Assembly: GCF_017348835.2 (NCBI RefSeq)
Contig: NZ_CP071375.1
DNA from: Escherichia coli
Lineage (GTDB): Bacteria > Pseudomonadota > Gammaproteobacteria > Enterobacterales > Enterobacteriaceae
Reading direction: 5' to 3' (one strand)
Length of the DNA stretch: 64,000 nucleotides
This document shows, piece by piece, positions 191 through 30,945 of this stretch (positions within the stretch are counted from its first letter, which is position 1; every line of letters starts with the position of its first letter). Both the position numbers and the translations under genes were made by a program. The notes beneath the pieces are model-generated. The model was not told the DNA's origin. It made no database searches and saw only the letters and a list, made by a program, of their open reading frames with translations.

Positions 191-1616
191 TAATGCCAGT
201 CAGTTAAGCAACTGACTGGCTCTTTTTCGGGGCTGTGGGGTATTTCCAGGGCCTCTCCTTTACCACTCTCGGGAAGGCCCTTTCCCTTCTTGTCGGTAAT
301 TTCACAAGTTGTCCCATACTTGCAAGATCGCGCATCAGCTCCGGTATACGTCCCGGTGAAGCGCCCTGCAATGTCATCAGCATTCTCATCACCATTCCGC
401 ATGATTCTGAGAAGCTCAGTTGATTTGGCCAGTAACCTTTCAGATGTTCCGCCATTTTAATCATCTGATATCTCACCAGATTATAAGCCAGTAAGACACC
501 CCACAGCTCTTGCTCCACAAGCTCAGGCTTTTTACTTCTCAGCGTCAGCCTGCTCAGTTGCATCGTCTGTTTTATCTCCCTGTATCCCAGTTCGATTTCC
601 CAGCGATGACTGTACAGATCCGCCATTTCTCCTCCGGGGAAGCGCATGGCGTCCGTCATCGACGTCAGCAGATGGCAGACTTTTCCTTTGCGCGTCACGG
701 TCAGCAGGCGGGCTGTCACCTCATTTCCCAGTCCCGGCCACTTTTTTCGTGCCTGCGGGCTGGTTTTCAGCTTCACCAGATGATCGCCTTTACCCAGTTT
801 TCTGATCTCTTCATATTGCGCTCCCTTTCTGAGAGGGATCATCCAGTGGCGGTGTTCTCCCGCCAGGCTCCAGGCATTTAACAATCCCAGTGAGTAATAA
901 CCTTTATCCATTAACGTCAGAGTGTTATCGCCGGTTTGTTCTATAAGTTGCTCAGCAAGCTCATTTTCGCTGTTCTTCATCGTGCCGAAGGCTGCAGCCG
1001 TCAGCAGATGGCTGGTCAGTTCCATCTGGCAGACCATTTTGACCTGCGGGTAGAGCGCCGGGGTCCCGGCATGTGTCTGGCGAGGGAAGGCTGCATCGTT
1101 CTCTGGTGTATCCGGTGTGCGCCAGAACACACCATCGATGGCCAGCAGGGTCAGGCCGCACCAGTGCGGATGCGGCGTGGCGTTATGCCAGAGCTGCGCT
1201 GTTTTCGTGAACACGCGGCGGACAGCCTCACTTCCCAGGCGCTGGCGGGCCTGAATAACAGCACTGGGGGCAACGAAGGTGCGATTGCCCGGCAGCATGA
1301 TGTCCAGGCGATTCACAATCTGGTGAAGAGGTTCTTTACGCTCAAGCGCCATGCCAACAATACACCAGACCATCATTTCGAGGGGAAGACGGCGCTTGCG
1401 TAGCGTTACAGTACCTGATTCGGCAAGGCAACGAGAGATGAGTTCGGGGTCGAGGTAATCTCCCAGAGAAGTCAGTGGGTTACGCAGAGAATCGTAACGG
1501 GATACCAGATCAAGAGCCTGTCCAATGTGCATAAAAAAATCCGGAAACGAGTGAGCGTTTCCGGATTCTTACACAGCCACTGGATCGGTCAACTGATCCT
1601 TAACTGATCGGCATTA
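191..1616 (-). mobile_element. IS4: IS4 insertion sequence, 1426 bp, imperfect 18-bp terminal inverted repeats (TAATGCCAGTCAGTTAAG / TAATGCCGATCAGTTAAG, 16 of 18 match)
   Basis: Terminal inverted repeats read at both ends, single 442-aa transposase ORF, 12-bp flanking direct repeat; length matches IS4. Confidence 0.92.
204..1532 (-). CDS. insG: IS4 transposase (442 aa)
   Basis: Full-length ORF filling the element between the inverted repeats; protein recognised as IS4 transposase. Confidence 0.9.
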
Positions 1617-21983: not shown

Positions 21984-22892
21984 ATGGCTGCCATTAATAC
22001 GAAAGTCAAAAAAGCCGTTATCCCCGTTGCGGGATTAGGAACCAGGATGTTGCCGGCGACGAAAGCCATCCCGAAAGAGATGCTGCCACTTGTCGATAAG
22101 CCATTAATTCAATACGTCGTGAATGAATGTATTGCGGCTGGCATTACTGAAATTGTGCTGGTTACACACTCATCTAAAAACTCTATTGAAAACCACTTTG
22201 ATACCAGTTTTGAACTGGAAGCAATGCTGGAAAAACGTGTAAAACGTCAACTGCTTGATGAAGTGCAGTCTATTTGTCCGCCGCACGTAACTATTATGCA
22301 AGTTCGTCAGGGGCTGGCGAAAGGCCTGGGACACGCGGTATTGTGTGCTCACCCGGTAGTGGGTGATGAACCTGTGGCTGTTATTTTGCCTGACGTTATT
22401 CTGGATGAATATGAATCCGATTTGTCACAGGATAACCTGGCAGAGATGATCCGCCGCTTTGATGAAACGGGTCATAGCCAGATCATGGTTGAACCGGTTG
22501 CTGATGTGACCGCATATGGCGTTGTGGATTGCAAAGGCGTTGAATTAGCGCCGGGTGAAAGCGTACCGATGGTTGGCGTGGTTGAAAAACCAAAAGCGGA
22601 TGTTGCGCCGTCTAATCTCGCTATTGTGGGTCGTTACGTACTTAGCGCGGATATTTGGCCGTTGCTGGCAAAAACCCCTCCGGGAGCTGGTGATGAAATT
22701 CAGCTCACCGACGCAATTGATATGCTGATCGAAAAAGAAACGGTTGAAGCCTATCATATGAAAGGGAAGAGCCATGACTGCGGTAATAAATTAGGTTACA
22801 TGCAGGCCTTCGTTGAATACGGTATTCGTCATAACACCCTTGGCACGGAATTTAAAGCCTGGCTTGAAGAAGAGATGGGCATTAAGAAGTAA
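21984..22892 (+). CDS. galU: UTP-glucose-1-phosphate uridylyltransferase GalU, 302 aa
   Basis: Protein and synteny. Confidence 0.92.
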
Positions 22893-22916
22893 CATCCGTA
22901 TCGGTGTTATCCACGA

Positions 22917-22948
22917 AACGGCGTTGAGCAATCGACGCCGTTTTTTTA
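22917..22948 (+). terminator. Rho-independent terminator after galU
   Basis: AACGGCGTTGAGCAATCGACGCCGTT + T7. Confidence 0.65.
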
Positions 22949-22983
22949 TAGCTTATTCTTATTAAATTGTCTTAAACCGGACA

Positions 22984-23012
22984 ATAAAAAATCCCGCCGA
23001 TGGCGGGATTTT
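22984..23012 (-). terminator. Rho-independent terminator after hns
   Basis: AATCCCGCCGATGGCGGGATT hairpin with a T-run on the minus strand. Confidence 0.65.
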
Positions 23013-23035
23013 AAGCAAGTGCAATCTACAAAAGA

Positions 23036-23449
23036 TTATTGCTTGATCAGGAAATCGTCGAGGGATTTACCTTGCTCATCCATTGCTTTTTTGATTACAG
23101 CTGGAGTACGGCCCTGGCCAGTCCAGGTTTTAGTTTCGCCGTTTTCGTCAACGTAGCTATATTTTGCCGGACGCTGAGCACGTTTAGCTTTGGTGCCAGA
23201 TTTAACGGCGGCAAGGCTATTCAGCAGCTCGTTCGGGTCAATACCGTCAGCGATCAGCATTTCGCGATATTGCTGCAGTTTACGAGTGCGCTCTTCAACT
23301 TCAGCAGCAGCCGCGCTTTCTTCTTCGCGACGTTCGTTAACAACAACTTCTAATTTTTCCAGCATTTCTTCCAGCGTTTCAAGTGTACATTCTCTTGCCT
23401 GCGCACGAAGAGTACGGATGTTGTTCAGAATTTTAAGTGCTTCGCTCAT
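23036..23449 (-). CDS. hns: Nucleoid-associated protein H-NS, 137 aa
   Basis: [21 protein letters not shown]-terminus. Confidence 0.95.
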
Positions 23450-24052
23450 TGTAGTAATCTCAAACTTATATTGGGGTGGTTTGTTGAGGTAATAATAGAG
23501 CCTTAAATTCAGTTGTGCAATAGCCAGGAATGTAAGGAATTCAAAATTGTTCTTTATTTTGTGCCGCCAATAAATATCTTTTCATAAAATTAGCCAGAAA
23601 AGACGCGGCATATAGCCCTATTTGTACCGATGATTTCGCAGCACGTGAGGTTAAAACTTCCTGATTCATGTCACATTTTATGGGGAGATTATCGTAGGCT
23701 GACGACCTTTCAGTCTTCTGTATTAGTCGTGTTTACGAGAATTCCCTATTAAGCGAATGATGAAAAGTAGAACAGTCGCAATAAGAGCAGGGACTTAGTA
23801 TTGCACTATCTCCTGGAGGTCAACAGAGGGCTATTACTTGCGCAACAGGTTAAAGATTGTGAATAGTTACCAGCAGTCATTTACCCGCTTATAACAAGCG
23901 AGGCAGTTGTAATGATAGCTCAGAAGGATTATGCAAGGCTTCGTAAGGGAGAACGCATATACCACTTCTGTGCATACTGTTGAGCTGAAAAACTGACGAA
24001 TTATGATAAACTCCAGCCAACTTTATTTCATATCATTGAGGGCCTGTGGCTG

Positions 24053-24670
24053 ATGGCACAGCTATATTTCTACTATTCCGCAATGAATGCGGGTAAGTCT
24101 ACAGCATTGTTGCAATCTTCATACAATTACCAGGAACGCGGCATGCGCACTGTCGTATATACGGCAGAAATTGATGATCGCTTTGGTGCCGGGAAAGTCA
24201 GTTCGCGTATAGGTTTGTCATCGCCTGCAAAATTATTTAACCAAAATTCATCATTATTTGATGAGATTCGTGCGGAACATGAACAGCAGGCAATTCATTG
24301 CGTACTGGTTGATGAATGCCAGTTTTTAACCAGACAACAAGTATATGAATTATCGGAGGTTGTCGATCAACTCGATATACCCGTACTTTGTTATGGTTTA
24401 CGTACCGATTTTCGAGGTGAATTATTTATTGGCAGCCAATACTTACTGGCATGGTCCGACAAACTGGTTGAATTAAAAACCATCTGTTTTTGTGGCCGTA
24501 AAGCAAGCATGGTGCTGCGTCTTGATCAAGCAGGCAGACCTTATAACGAAGGTGAGCAGGTGGTTATTGGTGGTAATGAACGATACGTTTCTGTATGCCG
24601 TAAACACTATAAAGAGGCGTTACAAGTCGGCTCATTAACGGCTATTCAGGAAAGGCATCGCCACGACTAA
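24053..24670 (+). CDS. tdk: Thymidine kinase, 205 aa
   Basis: P-loop NAGKST near the N-terminus; synteny. Confidence 0.92.
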
Positions 24671-24929
24671 TAAGAATTTCTTTACTGACAGGGTGAGCAG
24701 GGCACTTTTATCCTGTCAGTTCGTTTTACGCACTTCTTCCGGGCTATACACCCTTCTCGGCAGTTTTTTAACGCCGCTATACGCCTCACAGGGCTCTTAA
24801 GCACCGACGTTGACTTGTGACCTGTAAAGTACAGTATCCTGTGTTTAGGCGTTATACATCGTCGCAAATATGATGAAGGCTAATGCTGTCGGTTTATGGA
24901 AAAGTTGCTTTGGGTAAACAAAAAAACGG

Positions 24930-24941
24930 CCCCAGAAGGGG
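24930..24941. repeat. 12-bp target-site duplication CCCCAGAAGGGG, left copy, IS4 #2
   Basis: Identical 12-mer at 26368-26379. Confidence 0.9.
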
Positions 24942-26367
24942 TAATGCCAGTCAGTTAAGCAACTGACTGGCTCTTTTTCGGGGCTGTGGGGTATTTCCAG
25001 GGCCTCTCCTTTACCACTCTCGGGAAGGCCCTTTCCCTTCTTGTCGGTAATTTCACAAGTTGTCCCATACTTGCAAGATCGCGCATCAGCTCCGGTATAC
25101 GTCCCGGTGAAGCGCCCTGCAATGTCATCAGCATTCTCATCACCATTCCGCATGATTCTGAGAAGCTCAGTTGATTTGGCCAGTAACCTTTCAGATGTTC
25201 CGCCATTTTAATCATCTGATATCTCACCAGATTATAAGCCAGTAAGACACCCCACAGCTCTTGCTCCACAAGCTCAGGCTTTTTACTTCTCAGCGTCAGC
25301 CTGCTCAGTTGCATCGTCTGTTTTATCTCCCTGTATCCCAGTTCGATTTCCCAGCGATGACTGTACAGATCCGCCATTTCTCCTCCGGGGAAGCGCATGG
25401 CGTCCGTCATCGACGTCAGCAGATGGCAGACTTTTCCTTTGCGCGTCACGGTCAGCAGGCGGGCTGTCACCTCATTTCCCAGTCCCGGCCACTTTTTTCG
25501 TGCCTGCGGGCTGGTTTTCAGCTTCACCAGATGATCGCCTTTACCCAGTTTTCTGATCTCTTCATATTGCGCTCCCTTTCTGAGAGGGATCATCCAGTGG
25601 CGGTGTTCTCCCGCCAGGCTCCAGGCATTTAACAATCCCAGTGAGTAATAACCTTTATCCATTAACGTCAGAGTGTTATCGCCGGTTTGTTCTATAAGTT
25701 GCTCAGCAAGCTCATTTTCGCTGTTCTTCATCGTGCCGAAGGCTGCAGCCGTCAGCAGATGGCTGGTCAGTTCCATCTGGCAGACCATTTTGACCTGCGG
25801 GTAGAGCGCCGGGGTCCCGGCATGTGTCTGGCGAGGGAAGGCTGCATCGTTCTCTGGTGTATCCGGTGTGCGCCAGAACACACCATCGATGGCCAGCAGG
25901 GTCAGGCCGCACCAGTGCGGATGCGGCGTGGCGTTATGCCAGAGCTGCGCTGTTTTCGTGAACACGCGGCGGACAGCCTCACTTCCCAGGCGCTGGCGGG
26001 CCTGAATAACAGCACTGGGGGCAACGAAGGTGCGATTGCCCGGCAGCATGATGTCCAGGCGATTCACAATCTGGTGAAGAGGTTCTTTACGCTCAAGCGC
26101 CATGCCAACAATACACCAGACCATCATTTCGAGGGGAAGACGGCGCTTGCGTAGCGTTACAGTACCTGATTCGGCAAGGCAACGAGAGATGAGTTCGGGG
26201 TCGAGGTAATCTCCCAGAGAAGTCAGTGGGTTACGCAGAGAATCGTAACGGGATACCAGATCAAGAGCCTGTCCAATGTGCATAAAAAAATCCGGAAACG
26301 AGTGAGCGTTTCCGGATTCTTACACAGCCACTGGATCGGTCAACTGATCCTTAACTGATCGGCATTA
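24942..26367 (-). mobile_element. IS4: IS4 insertion sequence, 1426 bp, second copy, same orientation as the first
   Basis: Same terminal inverted repeats and identical encoded proteins as the copy at 191-1616; own 12-bp target-site duplication. Confidence 0.92.
24955..26283 (-). CDS. insG: IS4 transposase (442 aa)
   Basis: Protein identical to the 204-1532 ORF. Confidence 0.9.
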
Positions 26368-26379
26368 CCCCAGAAGGGG
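26368..26379. repeat. 12-bp target-site duplication CCCCAGAAGGGG, right copy, IS4 #2
   Basis: Exact match to 24930-24941. Confidence 0.9.
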
Positions 26380-26408
26380 CCGTTTATGTTGCCAGACAGC
26401 GCTACTGA

Positions 26409-29084
26409 TTAAGCGGATTTTTTCGCTTTTTTCTCAGCTTTAGCCGGAGCGGCTTCTTTTTTCGCTGCAGTTTCACCTTCTACATAATCACGACCGTAGT
26501 AGGTATCCAGCAGAATCTGTTTCAGCTCGGAGATCAGCGGGTAACGCGGGTTAGCGCCGGTGCACTGGTCATCGAATGCATCTTCAGACAGTTTATCCAC
26601 GTTCGCCAGGAAGTCTGCTTCCTGAACGCCAGCTTCACGGATAGATTTCGGAATACCCAGTTCAGCCTTCAGCGTTTCCAGCCATGCCAGCAGTTTCTCG
26701 ATCTTAGCAGCAGTACGGTCGCCCGGTGCGCTCAGACCCAGGTGGTCGGCAATTTCAGCATAACGACGGCGAGCCTGCGGACGGTCATACTGGCTGAATG
26801 CAGTCTGCTTGGTCGGGTTGTCGTTCGCATTGTAGCGAATAACGTTACAAATCAGCAGGGCGTTTGCCAGACCGTGCGGAATATGGAACTGGGAACCCAG
26901 TTTGTGCGCCATTGAGTGACATACACCCAGGAAGGCGTTCGCAAACGCGATACCCGCGATAGTCGCTGCACTGTGAACACGTTCACGCGCTACCGGATTT
27001 TTAGACCCTTCGTGGTAGGACGCTGGCAGATATTCTTTCAGCAGTTTCAGTGCCTGCAGAGCCTGACCATCAGAGAACTCAGATGCCAGTACAGAAACAT
27101 AAGCTTCCATGGCGTGAGTTACTGCGTCCAGACCACCGAAAGCACACAGGGACTTCGGCATGTCCATAACCAGGTTGGCGTCGACAATCGCCATATCCGG
27201 GGTCAGTGCATAGTCCGCCAGCGGGTATTTCTGACCAGTAGCGTCGTCAGTTACAACCGCAAACGGAGTGACTTCAGAACCTGTACCAGAAGTGGTGGTG
27301 ACAGCGATCATTTTCGCTTTCACGCCCATTTTCGGGAACTTGTAGATACGTTTACGGATATCCATAAAGCGCAGCGCCAGCTCTTCGAAGTGAGTTTCCG
27401 GATGTTCGTACATAACCCACATGATCTTCGCGGCGTCCATCGGGGAACCACCACCCAGCGCGATAATCACGTCTGGTTTGAAGGAGTTTGCCAGTTCTGC
27501 ACCTTTACGAACGATGCTCAGGGTCGGGTCCGCTTCTACTTCGAAGAAGACTTCAGTTTCAACGCCTGCTGCTTTCAGTACGGAAGTGATCTGATCAGCA
27601 TAACCATTGTTGAACAGGAAGCGGTCAGTCACGATGAGCGCACGTTTGTGGCCATCAGTAATCACTTCATCCAGCGCGATTGGCAGGGAGCCACGGCGGA
27701 AGTAGATAGATTTCGGAAGTTTGTGCCACAACATGTTTTCAGCTCGCTTAGCAACGGTTTTCTTGTTGATCAGGTGTTTCGGACCAACGTTTTCAGAGAT
27801 GGAGTTACCACCCCAGGAACCACAACCCAGAGTCAGGGAAGGTGCGAGTTTGAAGTTATACAGGTCACCGATACCACCCTGAGAAGCCGGGGTGTTAATC
27901 AGGATACGAGCCGTTTTCATTTTCTGACCGAAGTAAGAAACGCGAGCCGGTTGGTTATCCTGGTCAGTGTACAGGCAAGAGGTATGACCGATACCACCCA
28001 TAGCAACCAGTTTCTCTGCTTTTTCTACCGCGTCTTCGAAATCTTTAGCGCGGTACATTGCCAGAGTCGGGGACAGTTTTTCATGTGCGAACGGTTCGCT
28101 TTCATCAACAACGGTCACTTCACCGATCAGAATCTTGGTGTTTTCTGGTACAGAGAAGCCTGCCAGTTCAGCAATTTTATAGGCTGGCTGACCAACGATA
28201 GCCGCGTTCAGCGCACCGTTTTTCAGGATAACGTCCTGAACAGCTTTCAGCTCTTTACCCTGCAACAGATAGCCGCCGTGGGTTGCGAAACGTTCACGTA
28301 CTGCGTCATAAACAGAGTCAACAACAACAACGGACTGTTCAGAAGCACAGATTACGCCGTTGTCGAAGGTTTTGGACATCAGTACAGATGCAACTGCACG
28401 TTTGATATCAGCAGTTTCATCAATAACAACTGGAGTGTTACCCGCGCCTACACCGATAGCTGGTTTACCGGAGCTGTATGCGGCTTTAACCATGCCCGGA
28501 CCACCAGTCGCGAGGATCAGGTTGATGTCTGGGTGGTGCATCAGTGCGTTAGAAAGTTCAACAGAAGGTTGATCGATCCAGCCGATCAGATCTTTCGGAG
28601 CACCGGCAGCGATAGCAGCCTGCAGAACGATATCAGCCGCTTTGTTGGTGGCATCTTTTGCACGCGGGTGCGGGGAGAAGATAATGGCGTTACGGGTCTT
28701 CAGACTGATCAGCGATTTGAAGATAGCAGTTGAAGTCGGGTTAGTGGTCGGAACGATACCGCAAATAATACCGATTGGTTCAGCGATAGTGATGGTACCA
28801 AAAGTGTCGTCTTCAGACAGAACACCACAGGTTTTTTCATCTTTATAGGCGTTGTAGATATATTCAGAAGCAAAGTGGTTTTTGATCACTTTATCTTCGA
28901 CGATACCCATGCCGGATTCGGCAACGGCCATTTTCGCGAGTGGGATTCGAGCATCTGCAGCAGCCAGAGCGGCGGCGCGGAAGATTTTGTCTACTTGCTC
29001 TTGAGTGAAACTGGCATATTCACGCTGGGCTTTTTTTACACGCTCTACGAGTGCGTTAAGTTCAGCGACATTAGTAACAGCCAT
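26409..29084 (-). CDS. adhE: Bifunctional acetaldehyde-CoA / alcohol dehydrogenase AdhE, 891 aa
   Basis: Protein and synteny. Confidence 0.95.
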
Positions 29085-29560
29085 AATGCTCTCCTGATAA
29101 TGTTAAACTTTTTTAGTAAATCATCTGCTCGAATACGAGAGTATAGTCAGTGCGATGATGATTTGCTTAACCGATGAAAATCAAAAGCTTACTCGCGCTC
29201 ACACTCACTGTGATTTACTAAAAGAGTTTAAACATTAGAGTTATTATCTCTAATGCGTCACTTCCAGGTGGCGTAAGCAAGATTACTCACTTCTGGGTAC
29301 TGATTGCGTGATCCAAATCAAATTTTTGCAAAGCTGACACCTTTCAGCATCGCTTTTCGCCATTATAGCTAACAGTTAATAAATTGTAGTATGATTTGGT
29401 GGCTACATTAGCATGTTTTGCACAACTAGATAACAATAACGAATGATAGCAATTTTAAGTAGTTAGGAGGTGAAAAATGCTGTCAAAAGGCGTATTGTCA
29501 GCGCGTCTTTTCAACCTTATTTATGGCTAACATTATCCGGCTTTTGCTTCGGAGCTAACC

Positions 29561-30208
29561 GTGATTCAGACCCTTTTTGATTTTCCCGTTTACTTCAAAT
29601 TTTTCATCGGGTTATTTGCGCTGGTCAACCCGGTAGGGATTATTCCCGTCTTTATCAGCATGACCAGTTATCAGACAGCGGCAGCGCGAAACAAAACTAA
29701 CCTTACAGCCAACCTGTCTGTGGCCATTATCTTGTGGATCTCGCTTTTTCTCGGCGACACGATTCTACAACTTTTTGGTATATCAATTGATTCGTTCCGT
29801 ATCGCCGGGGGCATCCTGGTGGTGACGATAGCGATGTCGATGATCAGCGGCAAGCTTGGAGAGGATAAACAGAACAAGCAAGAAAAATCAGAAACCGCGG
29901 TACGTGAAAGCATTGGTGTGGTGCCACTGGCGTTGCCGTTGATGGCGGGGCCAGGGGCGATCAGTTCTACCATCGTCTGGGGTACGCGTTATCACAGCAT
30001 TAGCTATCTGTTTGGTTTCTTTGTGGCTATTGCATTGTTCGCTTTATGTTGTTGGGGATTGTTCCGCATGGCACCGTGGCTGGTACGGGTTTTACGCCAG
30101 ACCGGCATCAACGTGATTACGCGTATTATGGGGCTATTGTTGATGGCACTGGGGATTGAATTTATCGTTACTGGTATTAAGGGGATTTTCCCCGGCCTGC
30201 TTAATTAA
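29561..30208 (+). CDS. ychE: MarC-family inner membrane protein YchE, 215 aa (GTG start)
   Basis: Protein and synteny. Confidence 0.85.
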   Translation: MIQTLFDFPVYFKFFIGLFALVNPVGIIPVFISMTSYQTAAARNKTNLTANLSVAIILWISLFLGDTILQLFGISIDSFRIAGGILVVTIAMSMISGKLGEDKQNKQEKSETAVRESIGVVPLALPLMAGPGAISSTIVWGTRYHSISYLFGFFVAIALFALCCWGLFRMAPWLVRVLRQTGINVITRIMGLLLMALGIEFIVTGIKGIFPGLLN

Positions 30209-30945
30209 TTCCTTTCAAATGAAACGGAGCTGCCATGCTCCGTTTACTTTGTCATTATTTTTACTTTGTTCCTGCGCAGTTATCAAAAGCAAAAGGAATA
30301 GGTAAAAATATTCTTCTCAAATTACAGTTAGTTATAAGGATTTCCTTAACTGCTTCTCTTCACCATCATGTTAATTTCGCCACATCATAATCCTGGGCTT
30401 GCTGAAGAATAATTGAAATGATATTAGTAATTCCACTGCCTTTGGTAGAGGAAAGTGCTAAATAATAATCAATTGTTAAATTATTGTGCATTTCACTACC
30501 GGAACTGTAATCAGAAAAGATAGACATGCTTAACCAATCTCTATTTGATTGAATTGAAAGATGTTTGTTAAGACATGGATGCAAGCTATAGATTCTGATA
30601 CGGTCAATAAAAGAGAATTGCTTAACAATTTTGCAAAATGTATTGGCGAGTAAGAAGCGCATTTGGTACTTTCCGGGCAACCGCCAGGCGATTCTTTATT
30701 GGTAATGAGAATAATTAACAATTAAAGAGCGTCGCGAAAGAATAATGTGTCTCGACAGGGGAGACACAGTACGAATCGACATAAGGTGATCGTCTGAATC
30801 ACCAGAATAAATAAAGTCGGTGATAGCAATCCGTAACGATAAAGTAACCTGACAGCAGAAAGTCTCCGAGCCTGTGCAGGGTCCCATTCCGGGATTACAC
30901 ATGCTGGTTAATACCAGTAATTATAATGAGGGAGTCCAAAAAACA

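Follow-up and report, generated by a model that had tools for sequence, protein, structure and literature searches.

IS4 is said to insert at targets with the consensus AAA-N20-TTT, reportedly put forward by Mayaux and colleagues in 1984 in the journal Gene, together with an IS4 insertion in the pheST attenuator that is said to have abolished attenuation and raised downstream expression. In IS10 and IS50, a fold-back hides the ribosome-binding site, thereby protecting the transposase from external read-through. For elements of the IS4 subgroup, a striking specificity of the target arms has been described, and the target-site duplication is given as about 10 bp for the IS4 family (De Palmenaer et al. 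2008). Moreover, insertion sequences are known to target REP palindromes (Tobes and Pareja 2006, PMC1525189). In the open-access literature, the target-arm remark was the only pertinent one found, and no statement on IS4 with terminators or with adhE was encountered.

The insertion described here is situated in a window of 64,000 nucleotides of Escherichia coli DNA, the window being the whole stretch that was analysed. The gene order is galU, hns, tdk, insertion, adhE, ychE and oppA (Table 1). The inserted element is IS4, a member of the IS4 subgroup within the IS4 family, as length, terminal repeats, open reading frame, duplication and sequence identity all fit. The imperfect 18-bp inverted repeats start with (T/C)AATGCC and match at 16 of 18 positions, and over the whole element the nucleotide identity to the IS4 copy of K-12 (insG) amounts to 98.9%. 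For exactly this 442-aa transposase, the Pfam domains PF13006 (Nterm_IS4) and PF01609 (DDE_Tnp_1) are on record. The duplication at adhE is a perfect repeat of 12 bp, and other IS4 copies are flanked by duplications of 11-14 bp. The copy at adhE has probably been active recently; elsewhere, IS4 reaches up to 32 copies per genome.

Table 1. Positions of the features discussed, in the numbering of the window.
Feature	Position	Strand	Basis or remark
Second IS4 copy, target-site duplication CTCAACGTGCGG, in the 3' end of the rdl antitoxin sRNA gene	191-1616	-	
tdk coding sequence	24053-24670	+	ORF list
tdk's own terminator, separate from the split hairpin	24697-24725	+	Same sequence as K-12 Term-seq 3' end 1294198(+)
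Severed 3' arm remainder and U-tract of the native adhE terminator, CCGUUUUUUU (mRNA strand)	24920-24929	-	
Target-site duplication copy, tdk side, CCCCAGAAGGGG	24930-24941		
Full-length IS4, 1426 bp, transposase co-directional with adhE	24942-26367	-	
Transposase-distal IS4 inverted repeat, TAATGCCAGTCAGTTAAG	24942-24959	+	
Inward terminator-like hairpin, transposase-distal end, GCCAGTCAGTT-AAGC-AACTGACTGGC and TCTTTTT	24946-24978	+	
IS4 transposase ORF, intact, single, 442 aa	24955-26283	-	ORF list
IS4 terminator-like hairpin, arms 26319-26307 and 26300-26289, U7 26290-26284	26284-26319	-	Folding
Promoter-like TTGACC-16 nt-AAGAAT, TG upstream, overlapping the 5' arm of the IS4 hairpin	26316-26343	-	Consensus match only
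Transposase-proximal IS4 inverted repeat, TAATGCCGATCAGTTAAG, with GATC inside	26350-26367	-	
Target-site duplication copy, adhE side, CCCCAGAAGGGG, the apex of the terminator hairpin	26368-26379		
Outer 5' arm of the native adhE terminator stem, AAACGG (mRNA strand), on the adhE side	26380-26385	-	
adhE coding sequence, 891 aa, stop TAA 26411-26409	26409-29084	-	ORF list; adhE annotation in the 100%-identical genome F2_81

Deletion of IS4 and one copy of the repeat gives, on the minus strand, the sequence TAA-N23-AAACGGCCCC-TTCT-GGGGCCGTTT-TTTT, which corresponds to TAA-N23-AAACGGCCCC-UUCU-GGGGCCGUUU-UUUU in the RNA. The restored hairpin starts 24 nt past the adhE stop codon and consists of a GC-rich 10-bp stem with a 4-nt loop, followed by a U7 tract, and thus displays the layout of an intrinsic terminator, with a GC-rich stem-loop leading into a U-tract 3' of the stop codon. 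For the empty site, folding of a 62-nt fragment yielded -23.6 kcal/mol with z = -3.4. An earlier note on this DNA had placed IS4 inside the stem-loop of the adhE terminator, and had claimed that excision restores a Rho-independent terminator and that adhE is left with a truncated stem lacking a T-tract. Each of these claims is borne out: the interval 24921-26390 brackets the element and both terminator halves, folding of the empty site returned the 10-bp hairpin with its U-tract, and the stub remaining on the adhE side, CCCC-UUCU-GGGG, comprises only 4-5 bp, folds weakly (z = -1.0) and has no U-tract.

The severed remnant of the U-tract is not identical in all occupied alleles, reading AAAAAAACGG in the window (24920-24929) and AAAAAATACGG in K-12 (L001, 2896-2906). 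The change in K-12 fits the decay of a segment that has fallen out of use. A scan of positions 22000-30500 against Rfam gave no match to a known RNA family 3' of adhE. A bidirectional terminator common to adhE and tdk was also considered and is unlikely, since a separate 3' end has been mapped for tdk, 54 nt past the tdk stop codon.

Given that the stub on the adhE side lacks a U-tract, adhE transcripts must enter IS4, and on this point the earlier note is likewise in agreement with the present analysis. About 50 nt inside the adhE-near end, however, IS4 bears a hairpin of its own on the adhE strand. This hairpin, GAAUCCGGAAACG-CUCACU-CGUUUCCGGAUU followed by U7, has a stem of 12-14 bp and a 6-nt loop, and it ends right before the transposase ATG (26283). 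It shares the intrinsic terminator layout of a GC-rich stem-loop running into a U-tract, folds at -24.8 kcal/mol (z = -6.5, with 0 of 200 shuffles as stable), and according to folding is more stable together with its U7 than the native adhE terminator. A pattern-based terminator scan did not include the minus-strand hairpin in its list, probably due to a stem extension that consumed the T-run, and folding was used instead. Owing to the presence of this hairpin on the adhE strand, read-through should stay within about 85 nt of IS4, and the adhE 3' end in this window is predicted to lie near 26284-26290. A promoter-like site of IS4 itself overlaps the 5' arm of the hairpin (Table 1). Transcripts from this site would begin within the hairpin and avoid termination, whereas those arriving from outside would terminate.

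At the transposase-distal end of IS4, the hairpin facing inward on the opposite strand (Table 1) would halt transcription coming from the tdk side. The same sequence coincides with the 3' end 4502127(+) of the K-12 IS4 copy, which has three entries in the three-condition Term-seq table for K-12 (Supplementary file 1 of Adams et al. 2021, PMC7815308). No 3' end is listed there at the transposase-proximal hairpin of that copy, although nothing indicates that transcription reaches that end in K-12. Since a second inward-facing hairpin is present at the other end, IS4 appears to be insulated on either side, and whichever way round it inserts, the terminator that it splits would be replaced.

Taken together, IS4 has split the apex of the adhE terminator, and it is quite probable that adhE transcripts end at the element's own hairpin and that adhE is affected only to a small extent. 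According to this explanation, IS4 would have landed in the adhE terminator because of its preference for an A-tract, about 20 bp and a T-tract centred on the duplication, an arrangement that corresponds to the architecture of a terminator flanked by A- and T-tracts. Insertion at the apex duplicated the 12 bp constituting the hairpin tip. The adhE transcripts pass the truncated stem before entering IS4 and most likely terminate at the hairpin and U7 just upstream of the transposase start codon. The adhE 3' UTR is predicted to reach about 124 nt, compared with about 52 nt at the intact site, with a stable hairpin still capping its end, and the hairpin would at the same time shield the transposase gene from adhE read-through. 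Anatomy, population frequencies, target preference and the 3' end within the homologous ISZ of K-12 are observed; we infer that termination at the transposase-proximal hairpin would be efficient in vivo and that level and stability of the adhE mRNA would be little changed.

A corresponding arrangement is present in K-12 MG1655, where ISZ with the pseudogene insZ (b4573) is located between tdk and adhE. The distance to the adhE stop codon is 41 bp for both K-12 ISZ and the IS4 of the window, and the ISZ duplication, which reads 10 bp (CCCAGAAGGG), is centred on the same dyad as that of IS4. K-12 ISZ (L001, 2918-3906) is a decayed element of about 989 bp, lacking about 440 bp compared with the full-length relative. 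Despite its decay, it retains the inverted repeat and a hairpin of 10 bp followed by UUUUCUU directly before the ISZ ATG. This hairpin is placed like the one in IS4 but differs in sequence. A full-length relative of ISZ (1430 bp, target-site duplication TTCAGTTCGGG) is found on plasmid NZ_CP062843.1 (L037). The first 35 nt at its transposase-proximal end, containing three GATC motifs and TTGACC, hardly differ from those of IS4, and its transposase is 39% identical to the IS4 transposase. The notion that ISZ is a diverged IS4 was rejected, as the DNA aligns over the terminal 34 nt only and the proteins are 31-39% identical.

In K-12, Term-seq detected a strong 3' end at 1295324(-), with read counts of 53,801, 51,499 and 100,225 in three growth conditions, which is labelled 'orphan' (PMC7815308). 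This position falls in the U-tract of the ISZ hairpin, 122 nt past the adhE stop codon. No 3' end is listed in the Term-seq tables (PMC7815308) between adhE and 1295324(-), and this stretch includes the truncated native stem. Judged by its position and read count, 1295324(-) is most likely the true 3' end of the K-12 adhE mRNA, located inside ISZ; a link of the 'orphan' end to adhE is absent from the PMC7815308 table. A search for 3'-end maps from IS-free or IS4-bearing strains (EHEC, UPEC, Nissle, BL21) yielded no usable data set.

To analyse the occupancy of the site, the empty site of 600 bp was reconstructed and searched for in 5,426 complete E. coli genomes. An intact empty site is present in 2,206 genomes, with up to 99.7% identity across the 600 bp, and in nearly all other genomes the match is interrupted at query position 289/290, where the duplication has its edge. 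IS4-type DNA occupies the adhE site in 1,133 of the 5,426 genomes. Full-length IS4 with the junction of the window accounts for 111 of these, and the remainder mostly resemble ATCC 25922, in which 270 bp are deleted from within IS4 and the transposase is frameshifted. The ISZ-type arrangement of K-12 is found in 1,884 genomes. Overall, about 59% of the complete E. coli genomes, K-12 MG1655 included, carry an IS4-type element at exactly this site. Moreover, IS4 is also found there reversed, flanked by an identical 12-bp duplication (L029), and on the variant target TCCCTTCTGGGG (L017). Since ISZ, IS4 in both orientations and IS4 on a variant target are all found there, the adhE terminator is a repeatedly used insertion hotspot. 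Existing records already cover the element as well as its target preference and the occupied locus, and the insertion is an ordinary, catalogued IS polymorphism.

The IS-free allele, which the earlier note proposed for comparison, is thus not the norm. The interpretation in the note was right in that the native terminator is split and IS4 is entered, but it overlooked the hairpin supplied by IS4 itself and the common occupancy of the site. Because of these two features and the 3' end within ISZ in K-12, the insertion is unlikely to have a large effect on how adhE 3' ends form or on the stability of the mRNA.

The best explanation may be extended, and is compatible with the reading, that the adhE-near end of the insertion sequence and its hairpin are kept by selection as the working terminator of adhE. 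This extension is possible but rather doubtful. In its favour, the K-12 ISZ pseudogene has kept the inverted repeat together with a hairpin that is used as a 3' end, and in ATCC 25922 hairpin and U7 of IS4 are intact despite deletion and frameshift. The two decayed forms, K-12 ISZ and internally deleted IS4, together cover about 2,900 genomes. However, their retention can be explained by limited time and clonal inheritance, and the deletions are far from the adhE-near end, which could be due to chance.

Substantially less probable is that loss of the native terminator leads to substantial adhE read-through across IS4 and the transposase ORF towards tdk, where the transcript would be antisense, with altered 3' ends or mRNA stability and expression of the transposase. 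The weakly folding stub without a U-tract fits such a course, as do the strong transcription of adhE and the fact that intrinsic terminators are never fully efficient. Against it stand the stronger hairpin and U7 on the adhE strand about 50 nt inside IS4, and the equivalent ISZ hairpin, which represents a strong 3' end of K-12 in three of three conditions. Furthermore, occupied alleles are the prevailing ones in major lineages, and this speaks against a serious cost to a gene central to fermentation.

The target preference of IS4 was derived from 18 distinct target loci reconstructed from IS4 copies in other genomes. The motif AAA-N16-22-TTT, centred on the duplication, is present at 15 of the 18 loci compared to 0.64% of background positions in the window (binomial p ~1e-30). 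A is nearly invariable at positions -14 to -10, as is T at +10 to +14, and the sample reproduces the AAA-N20-TTT consensus attributed to Mayaux et al. 1984. Folding at -12 kcal/mol or better was obtained for 10 of the 18 loci, eight of which are gene ends (adhE, bamD, crr, typA, eno, rpoD/mug, yceK/mdoH and degS/mdh), the other two being a plasmid site and a site within a coding sequence. The targets at gene ends look like textbook terminators. A fixed orientation of IS4, identical to that of the upstream gene, was considered and rejected: adhE, bamD, typA and rpoD/mug are each occupied both ways, which rules out a fixed orientation and fits a symmetric target. The specificity seen in the 18-locus sample agrees with that described for the target arms of IS4-subgroup elements (De Palmenaer et al. 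2008).

As IS4 insertions matching the motif also occur within coding sequences, the palindrome at adhE might owe its resemblance to a terminator merely to IS4 targeting an A-tract, a palindrome and a T-tract, without being a functional adhE terminator; this is highly improbable in view of the GC-rich 10-bp stem with its 4-nt loop and U7 placed 24 nt past the adhE stop codon, the intact hairpin in 2,206 genomes, the separate tdk terminator, and the variant target (L017), in which stem pairing is preserved by a G-U wobble.

The window contains a second IS4 copy, which is identical to the copy at adhE at 1426 of 1426 positions. It interrupts an rdl sRNA that was identified by its flanks (134-194 and 1617-1640) as Rfam rdlD with 55.1 bits, above the gathering score. 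Here, the 3' terminator arm of rdl is split about 310 bp downstream of chaA, and Rdl RNA would now run into the end hairpin of IS4. The two copies are in direct orientation, 23 kb apart, and bracket chaA, narGHJI, purU, rssAB, galU, hns and tdk. Being identical and direct, they lend themselves readily to events that delete or duplicate the block from chaA to tdk.

Rearrangements are also visible in other genomes, where hybrid junctions of the type adhE-IS4-bamD (L008, L009) and raiA-IS4-tdk (L013) are flanked by mismatched repeats. These hybrid junctions indicate recombination, in some strains, between the IS4 at the adhE terminator and the one at that of bamD, and imply a large chromosomal inversion. 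In ATCC 25922 (L002), the B2-type IS4 is flanked by inverted 12-mers, CCCCAGAAGGGG and CCCCTTCTGGGG. Its transposase-proximal repeat has lost the GATC and is, over about 35 bp, the exact reverse complement of the other junction. This junction looks like the product of quasi-palindrome template switching or gene conversion.

For the window itself the insertion is of little consequence, as a functional terminator very probably remains in place for adhE. Two modest points are new, namely that the adhE mRNA of K-12 most likely ends in ISZ and that elements of the IS4 type may seek terminators and bring replacements. In a wider form, which is put forward tentatively and falls somewhat short of an even chance, IS4-subgroup elements would be specialised terminator-homing elements that recognise the succession of A-tract, stem and T-tract in intrinsic terminators, insert in either orientation at the apex of the hairpin, and replace the lost terminator by inward-facing terminators at both ends; at adhE, the terminator would have been swapped and remnants of the elements retained. 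If this were true, the insertion would be nearly neutral, the adhE terminator of most E. coli, K-12 included, would be borne by an insertion sequence, and the decayed remnants would have been retained because they act as the adhE terminator. In the reference strain K-12, the ancestral adhE 3' end is absent. Copies of IS4 are found in the terminators of well-known genes, namely adhE, bamD, crr, typA, rpoD, eno and mdh/degS, and act as substrates for large inversions. The combination of terminator targeting with self-supplied terminators would provide a neat account of how insertion sequences persist at low cost.

Among the known systems, the IS4 copy of K-12 (insG, b4278) shares with the one at adhE the length of 1426 bp, the inverted repeats and the 12-bp duplication, and the transposases differ at four residues. 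In contrast to the insertion in the adhE terminator, the K-12 copy occupies a non-hairpin AAA-N20-TTT site. K-12 ISZ has the target site dyad, the orientation, a nearly identical stretch of the first 35 nt at the transposase-proximal end, and a hairpin with a U-tract before the ATG in common with the IS4 of the window, but represents another IS4-subgroup element, about 989 bp long and decayed, with a 10-bp duplication. The IS4 insertion in pheST reportedly likewise affected a terminator-type hairpin between A and T runs. The adhE case differs in that the insertion lies at a gene end, where the terminator carried by the element can substitute. With IS10 and IS50, IS4 shares the principle that the end of the element keeps outside transcripts from expressing the transposase, whereas IS4 and ISZ appear to use a true terminator hairpin with a U-tract for this purpose. 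The insertion sequences that target REP palindromes (PMC1525189) resemble IS4 in homing to extragenic palindromes and thereby limiting gene damage; in IS4, however, specificity resides in the A/T-tract arms, and the targets are single-copy terminators.
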